64,000 nucleotides of DNA, from the NCBI GenBank assembly GCA_965231215.1, contig OZ246423.1, forward strand, positions 576,001-640,000. Direction: 5' to 3'. The translations under genes and the position numbers were made by a program. The notes under the pieces were generated by a model. The model saw only the letters and a program-made list of their open reading frames with translations, was not told the DNA's origin and made no database searches. Origin of the DNA: Candidatus Altimarinota bacterium (GTDB lineage Bacteria; Patescibacteriota; Gracilibacteria; UBA4473). Shown in pieces: positions 34,806-59,362 of the stretch; the first letter of the stretch is position 1, and the number at the start of each line of letters is the position of its first letter.

Positions 34806-35282
34806 CTATTGCTCTGCCCCCTCTGTAGAAGCCGATTCAGGCGATTCTCCAGAAATTTGGAATGAATCTTTGAGATTTTGCCCAGCACTGTTTAGTTTTT
34901 GCAGCGCTTCCTGGGTTTCAGTAAGGGCTTTTTGAGTTTCGAGGAGTCTTTTTTGAATTGCTACCAATTTCTCTTTTCCTTCCCCGGCCTTGGCTATGAG
35001 TGTTTCTTCTAGCTCCTGCGCTTTTTTATCTAGTTCAAACAGGCGTTTTTTAAGATCATTAGCCTCCATATTTTTAAATTCCTGCAGGTTCACCTCCCTG
35101 CCCAGAACTTCTTTTACCACCTCTGGAACTGGCACTGTATCCTCATTTTTATTAAGCCAGTCTAGAAGAGGGTCTTTATACAAAAAGGCCGCCACAAGCA
35201 ACAGTCCAAAAATTAAAAATTTAGAGCCTTTCCCTGAGGGCCTTTTGTATCGATCATAGTATTTGTAATAACGCTTCATCAC
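34806..35282 (-). CDS. Membrane-anchored coiled-coil hypothetical protein
   Basis: One TM followed by a heptad-rich helix. Confidence 0.7.
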   Translation of the reverse strand: MMKRYYKYYDRYKRPSGKGSKFLIFGLLLVAAFLYKDPLLDWLNKNEDTVPVPEVVKEVLGREVNLQEFKNMEANDLKKRLFELDKKAQELEETLIAKAGEGKEKLVAIQKRLLETQKALTETQEALQKLNSAGQNLKDSFQISGESPESASTEGAEQ

Positions 35283-50881: not shown

Positions 50882-51562
50882 ATGGCTCATCTGTTTTTTG
50901 ATTTTGATTCAACTGTCTGCACCAAAGAATCTTTGGACGAGGTTATTGCATTAGCGCTCAAAAATCATCCCCAAAAAGACACTTTAGTAGCGGAAATTGA
51001 ACACATTACGACCCTCGGGATGGAAGGCGTTATAGACTTCAAAGCCTCACTGATACAAAGATTAAGTGTTACCACTATTGATAAAACCTTATTTGATCAA
51101 GTTGGAGACATGCTCACCCAACACATTACTCCTGGAATACCAGAAATTTTTGAATGGCTCCAAAGTCACTCCCACCAAACTTATATCGTCAGCGGCGGAT
51201 TTATCCCTTGTATTTTACCTACCGCTAAAATTTTGAAGGTTCCTTCTAGGAATTGTTTTGCTAATGAATGTGAATTAAACGACAAAGGGGAAGTTATCGG
51301 CGCCAACCAAAAAAATCTGCTCTGGACCGACCAGGGTAAAGTTCCCGTTATCAAATTCCTCAAAAAAGATCGAAACATTTCTGAGACAACCGTTATGGTA
51401 GGAGACGGGAGTAATGATCTACGGGCTTACGAAGAGGATTGTGTAGATATTTTTTGTGGCTTTGGGGTAAATGTGGTTCGAAAAAAGGTACAAAAAAAAG
51501 CGCCAAATTTTTTCACAAAATCCGAAGAATTACTTCATTTTTTAAAAACAACTCTCCAATGA
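50882..51562 (+). CDS. serB: Phosphoserine phosphatase (HAD-IB)
   Basis: FDFDST (DxDST), IVSGGF, MVGDGSND; adjacent to serA and serC. Confidence 0.88.
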   Translation: MAHLFFDFDSTVCTKESLDEVIALALKNHPQKDTLVAEIEHITTLGMEGVIDFKASLIQRLSVTTIDKTLFDQVGDMLTQHITPGIPEIFEWLQSHSHQTYIVSGGFIPCILPTAKILKVPSRNCFANECELNDKGEVIGANQKNLLWTDQGKVPVIKFLKKDRNISETTVMVGDGSNDLRAYEEDCVDIFCGFGVNVVRKKVQKKAPNFFTKSEELLHFLKTTLQ

Positions 51563-52056
51563 ATCACCAACGAGCTAAGAAGGTGTTTACTGAAATTCAA
51601 GCCCTTCCATACGGACTGTCTTTGGCTCCTGATGAAGAATCTAATAATTGTTTCTTCAAAGGCACAAAGCTCATAAAAGAGTTGGCAATACTCGGGTATG
51701 CCGTTCGTGGGCGGGTCGGGGAAACCTATTGGGATTCAAATATTATAGATGAGGAAATTATCTCACTGCTCCCTGAAGATATTTTAGTCACACACTTTTT
51801 CCCAGAAGTAATGGTTGATGGAGTGTGGCGAATTGTTGATCCAACATTCCAACCCTCACTTGAAAAGTATGGGTTTCAAATTGGTTCGTGGGAAGGAACA
51901 AAAAATACCTGCTTCCCCATTACAAAACTCTATAGCCAAGAGGCCTCTATCACGTACCAAGAACGGTGGTTTAATCCAGCATATCAGCAAGATTTTTTTG
52001 AAAGAGGAAAGCCCTGTTGGAGGGCCTTAAACAAATGGTTTTCAGAAAGAGCATAG
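51559..52056 (+). CDS. Transglutaminase-like hypothetical protein
   Basis: LPY...NNC..K, THFFPEV...WRIVDPT (Cys-His-Asp order). Confidence 0.6.
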   Translation: MNHQRAKKVFTEIQALPYGLSLAPDEESNNCFFKGTKLIKELAILGYAVRGRVGETYWDSNIIDEEIISLLPEDILVTHFFPEVMVDGVWRIVDPTFQPSLEKYGFQIGSWEGTKNTCFPITKLYSQEASITYQERWFNPAYQQDFFERGKPCWRALNKWFSERA

Positions 52057-52061
52057 AAAAT

Positions 52062-52089
52062 TTGAACCAAAAATTTTTTGAGTTAGTAT
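52062..52089 (+). promoter_or_regulatory. Promoter of the serA leader
   Basis: TTGAAC-16 nt-TAGTAT, 10 nt before the leader ATG at 52100. Confidence 0.6.
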
Positions 52090-52099
52090 TAAAATGCAA

Positions 52100-52138
52100 A
52101 TGAGTCGCCCAAGCGGAAAAGGTCGAAAAGAAATCTAA
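52100..52138 (+). CDS. Putative leader peptide MSRPSGKGRKEI upstream of serA
   Basis: ATG AGT CGC CCA AGC GGA AAA GGT CGA AAA GAA ATC TAA; same C-terminus as the glyA leader; in-frame upstream ATG at 52094. Confidence 0.75.
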   Translation: MSRPSGKGRKEI

Positions 52139-52163
52139 ACGAAGCTTCGTTCCATCCCTTTGC

Positions 52164-52205
52164 GTGTCCCCCAAAAAACTTTGCGGGATATTTTTATTTC
52201 TTTTT
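52164..52205 (+). terminator. Leader terminator (attenuator) upstream of serA
   Basis: TGTCCC-C-CAAA aaac TTTG-C-GGGATA followed by TTTTTATTTCTTTTT. Confidence 0.6.
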
Positions 52206-52219
52206 AACTTTTTTAAATA

Positions 52220-53449
52220 ATGAAACCATCACTCCCAAAACCTGATATTCGTATTTTGCTTCTTGAAGGGGTTCATCCTAAGGCTTTGGAATATTTTAAA
52301 AATGCTGGATATGAGAATATTGAATATTTAAAAACCGCCCTTGCTGAAGACGAGCTCATAGAGCAAATTAAAGACGTACACTTTTTAGGGATTAGATCTC
52401 GAACCCAGCTCACTAAAAACGTATTTGAGGCAGCAAATAAACTAGTCGCTGTGGGCTGTTTTTGCATCGGAACTAATCAAGTAGACCTGAAAGCCGCAAA
52501 AATGAAAGGCATCCCTGTTTTTAACGCGCCTTTTGCCAATACTCGAAGTGTCGCCGAACTAACTATCAGTTCCGCTATTCAGCTTATGCGAGGGCTCCCA
52601 GCCAAAAATGCCGCAGCTCACCGAGGAGAATGGCTCAAATCAGCTGATAATTCGTATGAAGTTAGAGGAAAAAAACTCGGCATCATTGGCTACGGAAACA
52701 TTGGATCGCAACTCAGTGTACTGGCCTCAGGTATGGGAATGCACGTCCACTACTACGATACAGAAAGCAAGCTTTCGCACGGAAATGCCAAATGCGTAGA
52801 AAGCCTAGAAGCGCTTTTAGCTCTGTCAGATGTGGTCACTCTGCATGTGCCAGAAACCCCTGAAACCAAAAATATGATGAACGCCAAAACCCTGGGCCAA
52901 ATGAAACCTGGAAGTCATTTGATTAACTATGCCCGAGGCTCTGTTATAGACATTGAAGCGTTAAAAGACGCGCTTGAATCTGGGCACCTCCACGGAGCCG
53001 CCCTAGATGTGTTCCCCAAAGAACCAAAATCTAAAGCTGAAGAATTTCAGTCTCCACTGCGAGGTATCGACAATGTGCTCATTTCTCCACACGTAGGAGG
53101 AAGCACCCAAGAGGCCCAAGAAAACATTGGAGTCGAAGTCGTTGAAAAGCTGGTAAAATACTCAGATAATGGGTCTACTGCATGGTCGGTAAACTTCCCA
53201 GAAGCCGTGCTCCCCAAACACACCGACAGCCACAGAATTCTAAATATTCACCAAAACATTCCGGGAATTCTGAGTCAGATAAATCAAATTTTTGCAGATA
53301 ACCAGGCCAATATTGTGGGGCAATTTTTACAAACCGATCCAGATATTGGATATGTAGTGATTGATATAGATACCAAAAACAATCCACAGATCTTTAAAGA
53401 AAAACTCAAATCCATTCAGGGCTCTCTTCGTACCCGTGTCCTTCACTAA
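52220..53449 (+). CDS. serA: D-3-phosphoglycerate dehydrogenase
   Basis: GIRSRT, GCFCIGTNQVD, GIIGYGNIG, PHVGGSTQEAQ, C-terminal ACT. Confidence 0.97.
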   Translation: MKPSLPKPDIRILLLEGVHPKALEYFKNAGYENIEYLKTALAEDELIEQIKDVHFLGIRSRTQLTKNVFEAANKLVAVGCFCIGTNQVDLKAAKMKGIPVFNAPFANTRSVAELTISSAIQLMRGLPAKNAAAHRGEWLKSADNSYEVRGKKLGIIGYGNIGSQLSVLASGMGMHVHYYDTESKLSHGNAKCVESLEALLALSDVVTLHVPETPETKNMMNAKTLGQMKPGSHLINYARGSVIDIEALKDALESGHLHGAALDVFPKEPKSKAEEFQSPLRGIDNVLISPHVGGSTQEAQENIGVEVVEKLVKYSDNGSTAWSVNFPEAVLPKHTDSHRILNIHQNIPGILSQINQIFADNQANIVGQFLQTDPDIGYVVIDIDTKNNPQIFKEKLKSIQGSLRTRVLH

Positions 53450-53450
53450 A

Positions 53451-54530
53451 ATGTTTAATATTACTTTCAATCCCGGACCATCACAGATCTCCCCTGAAAC
53501 TAAAGATGATATGCGTCGAGCCATGGATGAGCGAATACTAGAAATCTCGCACCGAAGTGCTCAATTTTCTGACATTTCCAGAAATACCATTTCCCAATTA
53601 AGGAAATATCTGGGGATCCCTAAAGACTATAAAGTGTTTTATATGAGCTCGGCTACTGCCTGCTGGCATTCTATTTTGGCCAACGGTGTAGCACAAAAAT
53701 CCTTCCATTTTATAAACGGATCCTTTTCTGAAAAATTCGCCAAAGCGTCTCAAGCTTTGGGCAAAAAATTTGATGAAAATCGGGTTGAACTCGGTCAGCA
53801 AAATTCTGTTAAAAGTGTAGCAATAGAGGGGGACTGTGAATTGATTTCTCTCTGCTACAACGAAACCAGCACCGGCGTAATGATAGAAAACCAAGACCTA
53901 AAATATCTACGTGAAACCTATCGAAAAAAGTTACTCGCAGTAGATATTACCAGTTGTGCTGGCGCCATAAACGCTCCAATCGAAAAAGCCGATGTGTGGT
54001 ATTTTTCAGTCCAAAAGTGTTTTGGCCTCCCTCCAGGGCTTGGGATTTTGATCATCAGCCCTGAAGCCTTTGAGCGTTCAAAAGTATTGGCTAATGAAGG
54101 CAAAAATATGGCAGGAATTTGGCAGTGGAGCTTCCTTGAAAAAACCATGATAAGCAAAGACCACCAAACCCCGCAAACTCCGAATATACTAAATATTTTC
54201 CTCCTGGGAGAACAGTGTAAAAGATGGAATGCAGAAGGCGGCTTGAAGGCAAAAGAGAAGCTCACTCAAGACAAAGCTCAAATGATTAAACAGTGGGTAC
54301 AAAGCCATCCTCAACTTGAATTTTTTGTGTCGAATGAACGCTACAGATCTACCACCGCTTTAACGATTAAATCCACTCCAGAATTTATAGAAAAGATTCA
54401 TAAAACCTGCAGCGAAAATAAGATTGTGATGGGCAAAGGTTACGGGGATACTAAATCTTACGTGTTTCGGATTGCTAACTTTCCAAGTGTGACTAAAGCC
54501 AATTTAGAAACTTTATTTGATCTTATTTAG
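53451..54530 (+). CDS. serC: Phosphoserine aminotransferase (class V PLP)
   Basis: FNPGPSQ, ISHRS, NETSTGV, YFSVQKCFGLPPGLG; follows serA. Confidence 0.85.
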   Translation: MFNITFNPGPSQISPETKDDMRRAMDERILEISHRSAQFSDISRNTISQLRKYLGIPKDYKVFYMSSATACWHSILANGVAQKSFHFINGSFSEKFAKASQALGKKFDENRVELGQQNSVKSVAIEGDCELISLCYNETSTGVMIENQDLKYLRETYRKKLLAVDITSCAGAINAPIEKADVWYFSVQKCFGLPPGLGILIISPEAFERSKVLANEGKNMAGIWQWSFLEKTMISKDHQTPQTPNILNIFLLGEQCKRWNAEGGLKAKEKLTQDKAQMIKQWVQSHPQLEFFVSNERYRSTTALTIKSTPEFIEKIHKTCSENKIVMGKGYGDTKSYVFRIANFPSVTKANLETLFDLI

Positions 54531-55083
54531 CCCGTTCAACGTATTCACCACTCAAGGTATTCACCACGATTTTGTCTCCTTTTTCAATAAAGGGCGGCAC
54601 TCTAAGGGTGTAGCCTGTATCAATCGTAGCGTCTTTGGTCACGTTTCCAGCCGTATTCCCCTTTACGCCAGGTTCAGTTTCAATAATTTCAAAGGTCATT
54701 TTTGGCTGAACGCTTACATTGATAGGTTTTCCATCAAAGTACTGAATATCAGCGTCCATACCGTCAGATAAAAAGTTAGCGGTATCTCCTAATTGATCTT
54801 TGGTAAAGGTCATTTGCTCATAACTTTCTTGATCCATAAATTCATACGCCTCTCCATTGGCATACAAATATTGAGCTCTTTTATAGTTGATTTCAGCGGC
54901 TTCTACTTTTTCTGAACCAGAAAAAGTTCGCTCCATCGTAGAACCGGTCAAAAGGTTTTTCAGTTTAGTTTTCATGTTTCCTCCCTGACGAGCGGTTTTA
55001 CTAAACTGGTTCCAGGTAACCACGTACGGTTCCCCGTTCAATTGAATATATTGTCCGACTTTTAGATCTGTAATTCCAAGCAT
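54523..55083 (-). CDS. efp: Elongation factor P (Arg32 loop)
   Basis: KLKNLLTG, QYLY, FMDQESYEQ, TEPGVKGNTA, VPPFI, GEYVER. Confidence 0.95.
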   Translation of the reverse strand: MLGITDLKVGQYIQLNGEPYVVTWNQFSKTARQGGNMKTKLKNLLTGSTMERTFSGSEKVEAAEINYKRAQYLYANGEAYEFMDQESYEQMTFTKDQLGDTANFLSDGMDADIQYFDGKPINVSVQPKMTFEIIETEPGVKGNTAGNVTKDATIDTGYTLRVPPFIEKGDKIVVNTLSGEYVERAK

Positions 55084-55316
55084 GTAAAAAAATTAAAAAT
55101 AAAGGCAACACTCATAAGAAACTAAACCGCTGCAAATTTACATAATTTTAGAACAAAATCAAAATTCTCTAAAACAAGTTTGACCGATTCTTAAAGCCCT
55201 TTTATAAATTTTATATTTTGATTAAAGCTTAACGAGTTTTGAGTTTTAATCTTTTGTAAGAAATTCCGGCCAATTTGACTGGAAACACAAACAAAACTTT
55301 TTATTCTATACGCTGC

Positions 55317-55796
55317 ATGAACCCCCCTAAAAAAAATTCTACTCCTTCACCTCTTGAAATTCGAATCAAAACACTGGAATCAGAAATAGAGGCACTTCAA
55401 ACCTCTCTTGATCAGGCCAAAGAGGCTCAAGTGAGAGCCCTAGCAGATCTAGAAAATGTTCGTAGACGAGAAACCGCCGCCAAGGCTAATTGGACAAAAG
55501 AAGCCGTGAAACATTTTTTACAAAAAGTGATCCCCAGCTTCTTAGAACTTTCACTTGGAGCCGAACACTCTGAGGACGAAGCCATGAAAAAAGTAGTTGA
55601 AAAGTTCTTTACCGAACTACAATCTCAGGGGGTTGAATCCATTGCTCCAAACCCAGGAGACCCAATTGACCCAGAGCTTCATGAGGTGCTCATGATGGCC
55701 GAAGGCAAAAGTGGATGCGTGGTACAATGCTTAGAAGTGGGATGGCAATACCAAAGCCAAACGATTATCCCGGCCAAAGTTTCGGGCGCTCAGTAG
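55317..55796 (+). CDS. grpE: Nucleotide exchange factor GrpE
   Basis: RALADLENVRRR, DPELHEVL, GW.....I.PAKV. Confidence 0.9.
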   Translation: MNPPKKNSTPSPLEIRIKTLESEIEALQTSLDQAKEAQVRALADLENVRRRETAAKANWTKEAVKHFLQKVIPSFLELSLGAEHSEDEAMKKVVEKFFTELQSQGVESIAPNPGDPIDPELHEVLMMAEGKSGCVVQCLEVGWQYQSQTIIPAKVSGAQ

Positions 55797-55883
55797 TGAG
55801 GCCCTCTCGATAAACATTCCCAATCACAAGTGGAATGCCTCCTGGCCATAGGCCAGGAACCCAATCCTTAATAACCTATTACT

Positions 55884-55976
55884 ATGAAAATCAAAAAAGA
55901 AACCTGGTTCAAAATATTAGCCAGTGTAATACTATGTATCTTTATTGCTGGAACGGCCTTGATGTTTATGGTCTAG
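55884..55976 (+). CDS. 30-aa single-TM small protein
   Basis: MKIKKETWFKILASVILCIFIAGTALMFMV: basic N-terminus followed by a hydrophobic helix. Confidence 0.55.
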   Translation: MKIKKETWFKILASVILCIFIAGTALMFMV

Positions 55977-56012
55977 GCTTGTAATAACCCAAATTTTTAC
56001 TATACAAAGACC

Positions 56013-57092
56013 ATGTCTAAAGAACGCGTGGTCATTGGTTTGTCTGGCGGAGTTGATTCTTCAGTTTCGGCCAAACTTTTGGTAGATCAAGGCTATGAGG
56101 TCATTGGTGTTTTTATGAAAAACTGGGATGACAAAGATGAAGCCCACTGCCCAGCGGCCATAGACGCTGTTGATGCCCGACAGGTAGCCGAAAGTTTGGG
56201 GATTCGGTTTTATAGTTTTAACTTTGCTAAAGAATACTGGCGAGACGTATTTGATTATTTTTTGGAACAACACAAAAAATTTAGAACCCCTAATCCCGAT
56301 ATTCTGTGTAATAAGTATATTAAATTTAAAGTGTTTCTAGACGCGGCACAGAGTCTTGGCGCAGACAAAATAGCTACCGGGCACTATGCTAAAAATGTTT
56401 ATAACCAATCAACCAAACAATACGAACTCCAAGTCCCAAAAGACGGAAACAAAGATCAAACCTACTTCCTCTACACCCTCCAACAAGACTCGTTAGCCAA
56501 AACCCTTTTCCCACTGCAAGATTTAGACAAATCTGAAGTTCGGGCTCTCGCCAAAAAGTTTGGGTTTCACAACGCTGAAAAAAAGGATTCAACTGGGATT
56601 TGTTTTGTCGGGGAGCGAGACTACATGGAATTTCTCAAAAAATATCTTCACCAAAAACCGGGTAACATTGTGACCGAAAGCGGCCAAGTCTTGGGGCAGC
56701 ATATTGGACTGAGTTTCTATACCATAGGACAAAGAAAAAACCTCAATATTGGAGGCGTAAAAGGCGCTAAAGAAGCCCCTTGGTTTGTGCTATCGAAAGA
56801 CCTTAAAAAAAATGAAATTGTCGTGTGCCAAGATGACGATAACCCAAAACTTTTTGCATCAGAATTGATAGCTGAAAAACTCGACTGGGTTACCGGCACA
56901 CCACCTACAGAAAAAAAACTAACCGCCAAAATCCGATACCGACAAGACTTCCAAGACTGTAAAATGGAAGTAAAAAACGGCAAGGCCAAAGTGGCCTTTG
57001 ATAAACCACAAAGAGCCATTACTCCAGGACAGTCCATTGTATTCTATGACAAGGATAAGAAAGTTTGTTTAGGGGGAGGGGAAATTTGTTAA
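56013..57092 (+). CDS. mnmA: tRNA 2-thiouridine(34) synthase
   Basis: SGGVDSS, TPNPDILCN, ATGHY, KDQTYFL, KKDSTGICF. Confidence 0.98.
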   Translation: MSKERVVIGLSGGVDSSVSAKLLVDQGYEVIGVFMKNWDDKDEAHCPAAIDAVDARQVAESLGIRFYSFNFAKEYWRDVFDYFLEQHKKFRTPNPDILCNKYIKFKVFLDAAQSLGADKIATGHYAKNVYNQSTKQYELQVPKDGNKDQTYFLYTLQQDSLAKTLFPLQDLDKSEVRALAKKFGFHNAEKKDSTGICFVGERDYMEFLKKYLHQKPGNIVTESGQVLGQHIGLSFYTIGQRKNLNIGGVKGAKEAPWFVLSKDLKKNEIVVCQDDDNPKLFASELIAEKLDWVTGTPPTEKKLTAKIRYRQDFQDCKMEVKNGKAKVAFDKPQRAITPGQSIVFYDKDKKVCLGGGEIC

Positions 57093-57155
57093 CCAGGCTG
57101 AAGCTCTTCTGATTTCAAGTAAGGAAAAGCCATTTTCACTTATAATGATTATACA

Positions 57156-57180
57156 AAAAAGCCCTACTTCCGTAGGGCTC
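57156..57180 (-). terminator. Intrinsic terminator after glyA
   Basis: AGCCCTAC-ttcc-GTAGGGCT with an A tract on the + strand. Confidence 0.75.
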
Positions 57181-57200
57181 TAGTTGAATTTAAATTTTTC

Positions 57201-58478
57201 CTAAACAAAACTATCTGGAATTGGGAAGTCATGAGCTATTTGCCGAACTTCTTCCCGTATTTTTTCTTTTACGCCTGAATCATCTTTATTCCGCATAGCT
57301 TCAATCATAAGCTCAGCCACTCGTGCAGATTCTGCCTCTTTCAACCCACGAGTGGTAATAGCCGGCGTTCCAAATCGGATACCTGATGGATCAAACATAC
57401 TCCGCGGTTCATCAGCAATAGCGTTTTTATTCAGCGTAATGCCTACCTCGTCCAGTACGTCTTCCGCTTCTTGACCACTCACTCCAAGTGAACCAAAGAC
57501 ATCAGCCAAAAGTAAGTGGTTATCCGTTCCGCCTCCCATAAGCCTTACGCCTGCGTCTAGGAAAACCTTTTCCATAGCTTTGGCGTTTTTGAGGATCTGT
57601 TGACAGTGCTCTTTGAATTCTGGTTTGAGGGCTTCTCCAAAGGCAATCGCTCTTCCGGCAATAATATGCATATGTGGCCCTCCTTGCATTCCTGGGAAAA
57701 CCGATTTATCAATTTTTTTCGCAATTTCTGGATCTTCACGAGTCAGGATCATTCCTCCTCTCGGCCCTCGAAGCGTTTTGTGTGTCGTAGTCAGAATTAC
57801 ATCAAACCCATCATCAAATGGATTTCGCACGGCTCCTCCTGCAATAAGACCGGCAATATGTGCCATATCGGCTACAGCCAAAGCGCCAACTTCTCGAGCA
57901 ATCTCGACAAATTTAGCATAATCAAGTTCCCGAGAGTAGGCAGAAAATCCGGCCAAAATCATTTTGGGTTTTTCTTTCAATGCGACTTCTCGCATTGCTT
58001 CATAATCAATTTCTCCCGTGTCTGGATCTTTCATTTTGTACCGCACAAAGTTAAAAACTTTGGTAATATGTGTCACTGGGTGACCGTGCGTTAGGTGTCC
58101 TCCATGAGAAAGATCCATCCCCAGAATCGTATCCCCAGGTTCAAGTAGGGCAAAATAAGTAGCCAGGTTGGCCGGCGCTCCGGAATGAGGCTGCACGTTG
58201 GCAAACTTACAGTTAAAAAGTTTGCACGCTCGCTCAATACAGAGTTCTTCAAGTGGATCTGTAAAGTGTTGGCCTCCGTAGTAACGTTTACGAGGATAGC
58301 CTTCTGAATATTTATTGGTAAAGCAGCTTCCCATGGCCTCATGACAGGCTTTAGAAACATAATTTTCTGAGGGGATGAGCTCTAGACCGTTGGCTTCTCG
58401 ATCTTCTTCTCCACGAATAAGTTTGGCGATTGCTGCGTCTTGAGCTTCAATGTGTGGAATCGGTTGTGCAGTAGACAT
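57201..58478 (-). CDS. glyA: Serine hydroxymethyltransferase
   Basis: LELIPSENY, NKYSEGYP, HGGHLTHG, TTTHKTLRGPRGG, GTPAITTRG. Confidence 0.98.
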   Translation of the reverse strand: MSTAQPIPHIEAQDAAIAKLIRGEEDREANGLELIPSENYVSKACHEAMGSCFTNKYSEGYPRKRYYGGQHFTDPLEELCIERACKLFNCKFANVQPHSGAPANLATYFALLEPGDTILGMDLSHGGHLTHGHPVTHITKVFNFVRYKMKDPDTGEIDYEAMREVALKEKPKMILAGFSAYSRELDYAKFVEIAREVGALAVADMAHIAGLIAGGAVRNPFDDGFDVILTTTHKTLRGPRGGMILTREDPEIAKKIDKSVFPGMQGGPHMHIIAGRAIAFGEALKPEFKEHCQQILKNAKAMEKVFLDAGVRLMGGGTDNHLLLADVFGSLGVSGQEAEDVLDEVGITLNKNAIADEPRSMFDPSGIRFGTPAITTRGLKEAESARVAELMIEAMRNKDDSGVKEKIREEVRQIAHDFPIPDSFV

Positions 58479-58493
58479 AAGTTTTTGAAGTTT

Positions 58494-58527
58494 AAAAAAA
58501 TAAAAAATCGTCAGAACCTCCGACGAT
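58494..58527 (-). terminator. Leader terminator (attenuator) upstream of glyA
   Basis: ATCGTCGGA-ggt-TCTGACGAT followed by a long T tract. Confidence 0.75.
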
Positions 58528-58551
58528 AAAATTAAAGAGCAACTCCAAAAA

Positions 58552-58620
58552 CTAAACCTCTTTTCGACCTTTTCCAGAAGGTCTATTCGAGGTTAGATTT
58601 TTGGATGTTTTGTGGGTCAT
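58552..58620 (-). CDS. Putative leader peptide MTHKTSKNLTSNRPSGKGRKEV upstream of glyA
   Basis: 22-codon ORF ending AGA CCT TCT GGA AAA GGT CGA AAA GAG GTT TAG. Confidence 0.75.
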   Translation of the reverse strand: MTHKTSKNLTSNRPSGKGRKEV

Positions 58621-58630
58621 TTGTAGTCCG

Positions 58631-58659
58631 ATACTAAGCAAAACCCACATTCGATTCAA
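58631..58659 (-). promoter_or_regulatory. Promoter of the glyA leader
   Basis: TTGAAT-17 nt-TAGTAT, 10 nt before the leader ATG. Confidence 0.65.
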
Positions 58660-58675
58660 GATTTTTTTATGCTTT

Positions 58676-59362
58676 TTACAGAGACAAAAATAGAGCTTTG
58701 TTTTTCCCTAAGTCATAAGCGACTTTAGCAATTTCACATAATTTTTGATTGGTAAAAAAATGAGGCTGAAAAGCTTCAGCATCGATAATCCCGATAACCT
58801 TCCCCTCTTCATCAAAAATGGGGAGACAAAACTCGCTTTGAACCTGCACATCACAGGTGTAGTAAGGCCCTTCATATTGTTCGACACTTTGCACCACGAC
58901 CGCCTTACCAGAAAGCCCTACGGTAGAATTATTTGATCCCTTGGCAAACTCTGCATTTAGAGGAAACTCTCCTCGACTGAATCGACCATAATAAGCTTCT
59001 TTCAGCAAAATTGTCTCCCCTTCTAAATTCGTTGTCTTACGGTAAATACCAAGCCAATCAACGCCTGTAAGTTCTTGTAGGTGGGTTACAATTCGATTAA
59101 GCCTATAAAGCCTTAGCGTATTATCGTGTTTGGACAGATCAGCCTCTTCTAAACCAAGTGTTTTCTCCAAGCAATAAGGCTCTTGTGCCTTCAAACCGCA
59201 TCCTGCACCAGGAACAATCTCTGGGACAGAATAATGATAAAGTTGATTAATTTCTTCTTCAGAAAAATGCTCTACAGACTCCTGCAATGAGGTAGCAACA
59301 AACTTATTAAGGCTTTTTTTCACTGACAACTCTAAACCGATAGCCGATAGATAATGATCCAT
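58676..59362 (-). CDS. GAF-domain protein, free methionine-(R)-sulfoxide reductase (fRMsr/MsrC)-like
   Basis: VDWLGIY, YYTCD..VQSEFCLP, IGIIDAE. Confidence 0.7.
   Translation of the reverse strand: MDHYLSAIGLELSVKKSLNKFVATSLQESVEHFSEEEINQLYHYSVPEIVPGAGCGLKAQEPYCLEKTLGLEEADLSKHDNTLRLYRLNRIVTHLQELTGVDWLGIYRKTTNLEGETILLKEAYYGRFSRGEFPLNAEFAKGSNNSTVGLSGKAVVVQSVEQYEGPYYTCDVQVQSEFCLPIFDEEGKVIGIIDAEAFQPHFFTNQKLCEIAKVAYDLGKNKALFLSL

Follow-up and report, generated by a model that had tools for sequence, protein, structure and literature searches.

Few nascent peptides that sense metabolites are known in bacteria, the sensed compound being tryptophan for TnaC and ornithine for SpeFL. To our knowledge, none of them covers serine, glycine or folate metabolism, the genes of which are elsewhere under riboswitches or protein regulators. 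Here we report a family of short leader open reading frames (ORFs) that was found from a stretch of 64,000 nucleotides (nt) of the genome of a Candidatus Altimarinota bacterium (assembly GCA_965231215.1, contig OZ246423.1, positions 576,001 to 640,000 of the forward strand). This whole stretch is called the window, and positions are counted from its first nucleotide. Two upstream ORFs (uORFs) lie in the window on opposite strands, one before serA-serC and the other before glyA, and both end in the residues RPSGKGRKE followed by Ile or Val and a stop codon; positions and sequences are as given in a preceding sequence-only reading of the window. Judged from comparative sequence analysis, the two uORFs belong to a real, new and lineage-specific leader-peptide regulon for serine, glycine and one-carbon genes.

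TnaC is marked by the residues W12, D16 and P24 and SpeFL by HIRRxxH, and both tna and speF use Rho. SpeFL, the speF leader, and TnaC, the leader of the tna operon of E. coli (on TnaC, see PMC8429421 and PMC8450073), are stop-codon arrest peptides that control transcription termination. The leaders reported here resemble them in being short ORFs 5' of metabolic operons, with selection at the peptide level and invariant residues at a fixed distance from the stop. In TnaC and SpeFL, the occupancy of the stop by the ribosome controls the terminator, whereas here it is the terminator and the leader alone that are read from the sequence. No sequence similarity to TnaC or SpeFL is apparent; the 22-residue leader has no family in Pfam or NCBIfam and contains no tryptophan. 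Whereas tna and speF use Rho, the terminators here are intrinsic ones, and the genome yielded no Rho RNA-binding domain. Further differences are that all three stop codons are used, that the peptide can be as short as 12 residues, that the targets are biosynthetic instead of catabolic, and that the mRNA is predicted to be leaderless.

Mycobacterial polycysteine leaderless small ORFs (sORFs) have a similar architecture (Canestrari et al., bioRxiv 10.1101/834739); ribulon has been proposed as a name for such a system, in this case the 'Cys ribulon'. There, a leaderless sORF is the first cistron at several loci of one pathway and provides ribosome-based control of a regulon, as proposed here; the mycobacterial sORFs contain a tract of Cys codons that responds to codon supply, whereas the leaders of the window have a non-repetitive, invariant C-terminal decapeptide. 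They also differ in having a terminator hairpin, and masking of the initiation region has no family-wide statistical support. The classical attenuators (trpL, hisL, pheL, thrL) share with the leaders here the promoter, the short leader ORF, the intrinsic terminator and the biosynthetic operon; in contrast to them, the leaders have no run of regulatory codons, no predicted antiterminator and no match to an Rfam leader, and their peptide is conserved. PepNL of E. coli has a length of 14 residues. This very short nascent peptide arrests the ribosome at the stop codon from the upper tunnel (Nat Commun 2025, PMC11890864), and peptides of such size can therefore block release. PepNL acts without an inducer, and its arrest is relieved when Trp-tRNA reads through UGA, whereas TAA, TAG and TGA are all used here and the frame past the stop is not conserved as an open one. 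By analogy, the system would work most like TnaC and SpeFL and would be built most like the mycobacterial sORFs, as a member of none of these groups.

The glycine, ZTP/pfl and tetrahydrofolate (THF) riboswitches and the Rfam 'serC leader' likewise control glyA, ser and folate genes in cis through a 5' leader with a terminator, but no covariance model matched here or at 20 further glyA loci, and the element described here is read as protein. At the gathering score, Rfam gave no match in the 64-kb window, and nothing relevant was present at E <= 10 in positions 51500-59200. The sole Rfam hit at E <= 10 was Phe_leader, with 21 bits against a threshold of 55 bits, at the terminator 3' of glyA and away from the leaders. 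The 20 glyA loci without the motif (15 of the family, 5 of sister families) returned rRNA and tRNA only at the gathering score, and the 22-residue leader matched no family of Pfam or NCBIfam. A search of full-text literature, with supplements and subscription-only papers outside its scope, retrieved no paper with the peptide strings, no description of a glyA, serA or folA leader peptide from these bacteria, no relevant arrest peptide in the Candidate Phyla Radiation (CPR), no leader peptide in Peregrinibacteria, and no nascent-peptide control of serine hydroxymethyltransferase (SHMT). The suggestion in the sequence-only reading that this is not a described leader family, together with the Rfam scan that it proposed for excluding a known motif, is thus borne out within these databases and this literature.

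The genome is a single contig (C1) of 1,326,059 base pairs (bp), with a G + C content of 39.9% and a completeness of 99.3%. The 17-nt core shared by the two leaders occurs in it exactly twice, with at least two mismatches at the next best sites, and the nine-residue peptide has exactly two occurrences in the six reading frames. Among 61 related genomes, a first scan with a degenerate pattern for R-P-[S-like]-G-K-G-R-K-E, in which neither the next residue nor a stop was demanded, yielded 16 sites in 10 genomes, and the reversed pattern, used as a control, yielded none. At each of the 16, a codon for Ile or Val comes next and a stop codon after it, and the motif closes a short open frame that has an ATG in frame. 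The search for related uORFs had been proposed in the sequence-only reading, and it revealed a regulon wider than the serA-serC and glyA pair, with a SerB-like phosphatase, dihydrofolate reductase (DHFR) with dCTP deaminase, and a Vut_1 transporter among its genes. A near-match, RPSGKGSKF, is located at about position 35243 of the window (- strand; C1:611243), near the N-terminus of a longer ORF in which hydrophobic residues follow (...RYKRPSGKGSKFLIFGLLLVAAF); the ORF probably encodes a membrane protein that resembles the motif by chance.

The collection comprises 42 distinct leaders of one Peribacteria-like family, namely 36 strict ones (duplicates removed) and six variants from the glyA-anchored survey and the relaxed pattern (RRVGKGRKEV, two copies of RRIGKGRKEV, RRSGKGRKEV, RNSGKGRKEV and RPSGKGRMEI). 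Their consensus is R (42), P (37), R (4) or N (1), a variable residue (S 21, V 10, I 6, R 3, T 2), G (42), K (42), G (42), R (42), K (41) or M (1), E (42), and V (29) or I (13), followed by the stop (22 TAG, 13 TAA, 7 TGA). The distance from the motif to the stop is the same in all 42 leaders (the later patterns demanded the stop, the first scan did not). At the seven invariant residues, pairwise comparison gave 3121 synonymous and 41 non-synonymous codon differences, and the nucleotide differences at codon positions 1, 2 and 3 amounted to 337, 41 and 3069, respectively. All four Gly codons and all six Arg codons are used at invariant positions, and the synonymous choices for Lys, Glu and Gly match the codon usage of the genome. 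Within the window, the two leaders differ synonymously in the R, P, S and E codons (CGC CCA AGC..GAA against AGA CCT TCT..GAG), as had been pointed out before.

These data bear on the alternative that the element is an RNA motif or a protein-binding DNA or RNA motif with an incidental ORF. The 17 identical nucleotides of the two window copies would fit such a motif, as would the bias of Arg codons to CGN (AGR accounts for 12% and 10% at two positions, against 39% in the genome), which is the only hint of an additional nucleotide constraint. The RP and GR codons can also form a hairpin of 5 bp, but there is no covariation: the sole free position is paired in 19 of the 42 leaders, with 16.2 expected (p = 0.18), and the hairpin looks like a by-product of the codons. 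No purine-to-purine missense change, of the kind that would preserve a purine-rich RNA, is present among the 42 leaders, and even at E <= 10 there is no Rfam match to the element. The variation is mostly at third positions, and frame, ATG and stop are kept while the core varies synonymously, which argues for selection on the peptide and not on a binding motif. The sequence-only reading had proposed such selection and had named as its refutation homologs that keep the core but lose the frame, the start or the stop; the relatives show the opposite. An RNA or DNA motif is therefore extremely improbable, and the comparative data indicate that the translated leader peptide is the conserved element.

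The length of the uORFs ranges from 12 to about 33 codons, with an N-terminal part that varies in length and sequence. The shortest ones encode MSRPSGKGRKEI, MIHRPRGKGRKEI and MQGRPIGKGRKEI, with 12-13 residues. In two places, L034/L048 (G064) and L091, a long upstream ORF runs into the leader in the same frame, and no stop lies between them (...FDGQRPSGKGRKEV-stop and ...NVGNMVSRPSGKGRKEV-stop); here, either translation of the leader begins at an ATG inside this ORF, or the decapeptide is the C-terminus of the upstream protein.

Each of the 42 leaders is located in cis, on the same strand and directly 5' of its gene or operon, with one to three copies per genome. The gene that follows is glyA in 28 cases (in one of them after an inserted ORF of 118 amino acids (aa)) and serA in three. 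Four leaders precede an ORF of 91-94 aa, behind which comes either the gene of a SerB-like HAD-IB phosphatase or those of DHFR and dCTP deaminase, one directly precedes a SerB-like phosphatase, and one precedes an ORF of 152 aa plus DHFR. A Vut_1 (YhhQ-type) transporter follows one leader, and ORFs of unassigned function follow the remaining four. From these gene assignments, the theme of the regulon is the supply of serine, SHMT and the thymidylate/folate cycle. No leader is present before thyA-folA (C1:665716-666881) of this genome. The arrangement also bears on the idea that the peptide is released and acts in trans, for example by binding an RNA or an enzyme, being merely co-transcribed with its targets. 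In favour of this, R, K, R and K make the conserved part strongly basic, and the peptide sequence is under selection; a separate copy before each operon, however, is predicted for a cis element and needless for a diffusible factor, and the motif is always exactly C-terminal and followed by a terminator while the length of the peptide varies. We consider a trans-acting peptide very unlikely; a lineage-specific family of cis-acting leader ORFs, in which the C-terminal decapeptide and its distance to the stop are under selection, is what the sequences indicate.

Within the family, the pattern including the stop matched 23 of 43 genomes at 29 sites, none of which ends in TGG. The relaxed pattern matched 27 of the 43 at 36 sites, of which G-K-G-S-H-E-I-W is fortuitous. 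Of the 25 genera of the family, 14 have the leader. In a phylum-wide sample of 401 genomes (hundreds of families, 0.5-2 Mb each), four genomes matched, all of this family, and the motif was absent from the 397 genomes of other families. Among 185,579 species genomes, 28 stretches matched, from records named Peribacteria (10), Gracilibacteria (8), Altimarinota (4), 'bacterium' (5) and Rhodospirillales (1); the last, DRPNGKGSKEI in a metagenome-assembled genome, is located 5' of a gene that resembles citrate synthase, as judged by the first part of its translation, and is counted as chance, as it has no ATG and differs in its residues. A further 22 stretches matched in a metagenome collection. 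This distribution places the host family, which uses the standard code, as Peribacteria-like within the Gracilibacteria class of Patescibacteria (CPR). In several sister families of the class, 5-31 in-frame TGA codons are present inside glyA, consistent with TGA recoding in those families; there are none in the family of the window.

In the family, glyA is retained by each of the 20 genomes that lack a strict match. Of the 18 glyA upstream regions that could be counted among them (leaving out four places without the N-terminus of glyA, L111, L112, L115 and L116), 14 have no such uORF and the other four carry variants. A comparable uORF was also lacking 5' of glyA at 25 further loci, namely L150 of the same family and 24 of other families of the class. 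A midpoint-rooted tree of the single gene glyA was inferred from 41 GlyA rows (23 with leader, 15 without, 3 from outside the family; G015, with 51 residues only, was left out). The leader state requires seven changes on this tree, and at least five of the changes are forced by well-supported branches. Most leader-bearing rows group in two clusters, and rows without the leader are nested within these. The pattern suggests that the leader was gained once or a few times and then lost several times, although a midpoint-rooted tree of one gene does not establish an order of events.

The features of the two loci in the window are listed in Table 1. The TTGAAY-N16/17-TAGTAT-N10-ATG layout described in the sequence-only reading was confirmed at both leaders, with 10 nt between the end of the -10 box and the ATG of the uORF (52100 for serA, 58620 for glyA), and this near-leaderless layout with a terminator is general in the family. 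The reading had also described a hairpin with a T tract at each locus. This is clean at the glyA leader, where the stem begins 24 nt past the uORF stop and was picked up by a simple terminator scan; the hairpin of the serA leader, the stem of which begins 25 nt past the stop, is weaker and mismatched and is missing from the output of that scan. The gene identities held for serA (653 bits, cut-off for phosphoglycerate dehydrogenase 404) and glyA (551 bits, cut-off for SHMT 335); the best match of serC is indeed phosphoserine transaminase, but its score is below the curated cut-off.

Table 1. Features of the serA and glyA leader loci in the window (64,000 nt)
Feature	Position	Strand	Description
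serA-leader promoter	52062-52089	+	-35 TTGAAC 52062-52067, 16-nt spacer, -10 TAGTAT 52084-52089; read directly
serA leader ORF	52100-52138	+	12 codons then TAA; encodes MSRPSGKGRKEI-stop
serA-leader terminator-like hairpin and T-rich tract	52164-52191 (hairpin), 52192-52205 (tract)	+	One C-C mismatch, about -10.6 kcal/mol
TTTTTAAC box	52201-52208	+	17 nt 5' of serA ATG
serA	52220-53449	+	Phosphoglycerate dehydrogenase with ACT domain
serC-like aminotransferase gene	53436-54530	+	Overlaps serA
glyA-leader promoter	58631-58659	-	-35 TTGAAT 58659-58654, 17-nt spacer, -10 TAGTAT 58636-58631
glyA leader ORF	58620-58552	-	22 codons then TAG; encodes MTHKTSKNLTSNRPSGKGRKEV-stop
glyA-leader intrinsic-terminator-like hairpin and T tract	58527-58507 (hairpin), 58493-58527 (whole)	-	ATCGTCGGAGGTTCTGACGAT, 9 pairs
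Putative helix over glyA initiation region	58552-58541 with 58492-58481	-	12 bp, one G-U, -14.5 kcal/mol
TTAAAC box	58495-58490	-	Before glyA
glyA	58478-57201	-	Serine hydroxymethyltransferase

Across the 36 strict leaders, a TAnnnT box begins 11-19 nt (mostly 15-17 nt) 5' of the uORF ATG in 27 cases, and TTGnnn stands 16-18 nt farther 5' in 21 of these; the commonest form is TTGACG-N17-TACGAT-N9-ATG. With a promoter about 10 nt 5' of their ATG, the uORF mRNAs are predicted from this geometry to be leaderless or nearly so. The same seems to apply to much of the genome. TAnnnT peaks 14 nt 5' of start codons (there it is present in 75 of 759 long ORFs, the background being about 22), and a tetramer resembling a Shine-Dalgarno (SD) sequence is found upstream of only 29 of 623 long ORFs. 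The canonical anti-SD sequence is CCUCC. In this genome the 3' end of the 16S rRNA reads ...GGAATACCGCCTTA, with CCGCC at the anti-SD place (0-based offset 472632 of the reverse-complemented contig C1). Taken together, the rare SD-like tetramers, the CCGCC end and the TAnnnT peak point to initiation without SD pairing, and the lineage appears to initiate in this way, often on leaderless mRNAs.

Promoters of their own for the regulated genes were considered and rejected, as a -35 partner precedes the genes themselves in only 3 of 34 cases; the genes would therefore depend on read-through from the uORF promoter. A TT[TA]AAC box starts 13-20 nt 5' of the ATG in 18 of 35 regulated genes of the family. 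The TTTTTAAC/TTAAAC box is also present at positions -19 to -14 of 24 of the 759 long ORFs of the genome, namely serA, glyA and 22 others, and it is therefore regarded as a general initiation-region signal that is enriched in the regulon. In some genes it is located 3' of a clear -10 box and so inside a short 5' untranslated region. It may be an initiation signal that replaces the missing SD site; no partner for it was recognised in the 16S tail.

By a strict rule (a hairpin of -5 kcal/mol or better with a U-rich tail, between uORF and gene), 24 of the 36 leaders have a terminator, and its stem begins 19-28 nt past the stop in 21 of the 24. In several of the other 12, a hairpin and a U tract are visible by eye and were missed by the rule. 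The terminator sequences are wholly different between genera, and compensatory pairs are found within a genus. An intrinsic terminator between uORF and gene means that the gene would be transcribed only by read-through. Rho-dependent control of the tna type is unlikely, because Rho_RNA_bind (PF07497) was not found in this single-contig genome and was found in control genomes. [quoted passage not shown]

With the stop codon in the A site, the tunnel geometry of the ribosome puts the conserved residues between the peptidyl-transferase centre and the constriction. The free N-terminus and the minimum length of 12-13 residues therefore suggest that the conserved residues act in this part of the tunnel, which is the signature of self-acting nascent peptides, and sequence-specific pausing or arrest at the end of the uORF was ranked first on this ground. 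In the proposed mechanism, the decapeptide would act inside the exit tunnel, from which the peptides of 12-13 residues would never emerge. The ribosome would be slowed or arrested at or just before the stop, probably by a small molecule such as glycine, serine or a compound of the folate/thymidylate cycle. Its dwell at the end of the uORF would then set the read-through of the terminator and perhaps how accessible the gene's U-rich initiation region is. The best joint explanation, which we hold to be narrowly probable, is a translated leader regulon in which the decapeptide slows or arrests its own ribosome and so sets terminator read-through.

The constrained partition-function folding of the 24 leaders gave a terminator probability of 0.78 for the free RNA, 0.85 and 0.86 with the ribosome at the two Gly codons, and 0.92 with the ribosome at the stop. 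No antiterminator selected by the position of the ribosome was found; neither constrained nor truncated-transcript folding predicted a switch, both being thermodynamic predictions only. There is a weak trend in these models for a ribosome held at the stop to favour the terminator, as would be fitting for end-product repression; if the initiation region were unmasked in the manner of erm or the Cys ribulon, the stall would instead, by analogy, be the on state.

Several results weigh against an arrest peptide that governs read-through. The terminator is favoured in every ribosome state of the 24 leaders and no antiterminator or other switch is predicted; as long as the 3' arm is still to be transcribed, the 5' arm is pre-paired only modestly (0.49 in free RNA, 0.42 with the ribosome at Gly, 0.31 at the stop). 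Given the usual footprint of a ribosome, the terminator stem is about 9-18 nt past the edge of a stop-bound ribosome, and the ribosome would not be expected to melt it directly by steric means. Pairing between the end of the uORF and the initiation region is barely stronger for cognate than for non-cognate pairs (-8.53 against -8.10 kcal/mol; permutation p = 0.127), and dinucleotide shuffling of 35 leaders gave a mean z of -0.26 (p = 0.23 by t-test, 0.48 by Wilcoxon test). The motif is absent from 16 of the 43 family genomes and is therefore dispensable. The invariance at G, K, G, R, E, [IV] and stop was partly built into the later search patterns; unbiased support comes from the first scan, from Arg at -10 and Lys at -3, which were left free in the relaxed pattern, and from the glyA-anchored survey. 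Finally, both Gly positions are invariant in all 42 leaders while using all four codons, which fits the sensing of Gly-tRNA supply.

This last point belongs to classical attenuation, in which scarce Gly-tRNA would pause the ribosome at G(-7) or G(-5) and raise the expression of glyA and of those genes of serine synthesis and the folate cycle that feed glycine synthesis, all other residues being incidental. A glycine-starvation regulon of glyA, serA/C/B, folA and dcd would be metabolically coherent, and the leader ORF with its intrinsic terminator has the expected layout. However, the absence of a Ser or Gly codon run, stated in the sequence-only reading, holds for tandem runs, the two invariant Gly codons being the only ones and split by Lys, and Ser occupies the variable position in just 21 of 42 leaders. 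Moreover, the invariance extends equally to R, K, R, K, E and [IV], and the stop always follows at one distance, neither of which is required by codon sensing, and no antiterminator is predicted with the ribosome at either Gly codon (0.85-0.86, against 0.78 for free RNA). Classical attenuation is therefore regarded as unlikely.

The lack of a predicted RNA switch, and of a detected Rho RNA-binding domain, would also agree with a constitutive device without a sensor, in which the C-terminus of the mini-ORF tunes termination or recycling, or the coupling of ribosome and RNA polymerase, so that a fixed fraction of polymerases passes the terminator. A lineage without a canonical anti-SD and with widespread leaderless starts might use such a device. 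It would, however, hardly be confined to one metabolic theme, with exactly two copies in this genome and none at other genes, and a strict conservation of ten residues is hard to explain without a specific interaction. This makes a constitutive device improbable in our estimation.

Compared with these alternatives, the leader sequences make an arrest sensor the likely reading. In its fullest form, the decapeptide R-P-x-G-K-G-R-K-E-[I/V] would be a new small-molecule-sensing arrest peptide that, together with the ribosomal tunnel, detects its ligand, keeps the ribosome on the stop codon of a leaderless mRNA and coordinates glyA, serA/C/B and folA-dcd; this complete combination is put forward tentatively, with doubt outweighing confidence. 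Glycine, serine, a folate species or a nucleotide of the thymidylate cycle would each fit the regulon as ligand. If this is true, neither a sensor of one-carbon or serine-glycine metabolism that is based on the ribosome nor an arrest peptide from the CPR would have been described earlier, and glyA, serA/C/B and folA-dcd would be coordinated without SD pairing, without a detected Rho RNA-binding domain and without a riboswitch for them. Serine synthesis, SHMT, DHFR and dCTP deaminase would be joined in one control unit, as a regulon organised by the ribosome in ultra-small, uncultivated bacteria that appear to lack SD pairing and in which no Rho RNA-binding domain was found. The compact motif of ten residues has already been mutationally mapped by evolution through its 42 natural variants. 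Should the leaders be merely codon-sensing or constitutive, they would still form a new and well-defined leader family that is useful for genome annotation.

For single leaders, masking of the initiation region looks real in the folding models, although it has no significance family-wide. The TTTTTAAC box of serA is complementary to the purine-rich end of its uORF (z = -5.5 for the pairing of leader and box). At glyA, one arm of the 12-bp helix consists of the last base of the uORF stop and 11 nt of the spacer, and the other arm is located just 5' of the ATG. The helix encloses the terminator and is particular to the glyA leader of this genome, its generality being unsupported across the family; it is possible that it masks the initiation region of glyA. 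One compensatory change was present in an eight-leader consensus for this kind of pairing.

Shortly 5' of the serA leader, the window contains a gene for a SerB-like HAD-IB phosphatase (50882-51562, + strand) and an open frame of 205 aa without a family (within 50882-52056, + strand). With the SerB-like gene this close to serA-serC, genes of the serine pathway are clustered here. The SerB-like gene has no leader of its own in this genome; one is present in three other species of the genus.

Among the accessory ORFs of the regulon (L025:1135-1419, - strand; L045:1608-1883, + strand; L030:1614-2072, + strand; unassigned first cistrons in L017, L018 and L019), the 91-94-aa protein is encoded by the first gene past the leader, and two copies that were compared are 60% identical. 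The 91-94-aa and 152-aa ORFs matched no family of Pfam or NCBIfam and have no copy in this genome, and a protein-atlas search with the 94-aa ORF gave no usable match. The 152-aa protein before DHFR occurs in another genus. From their position, both proteins are candidate new players in serine or folate metabolism. In L032 (G023), the 118-aa ORF is located between the leader and glyA, and in L099, from a genome without a leader (G030), a similarly placed ORF runs up to the start of glyA.

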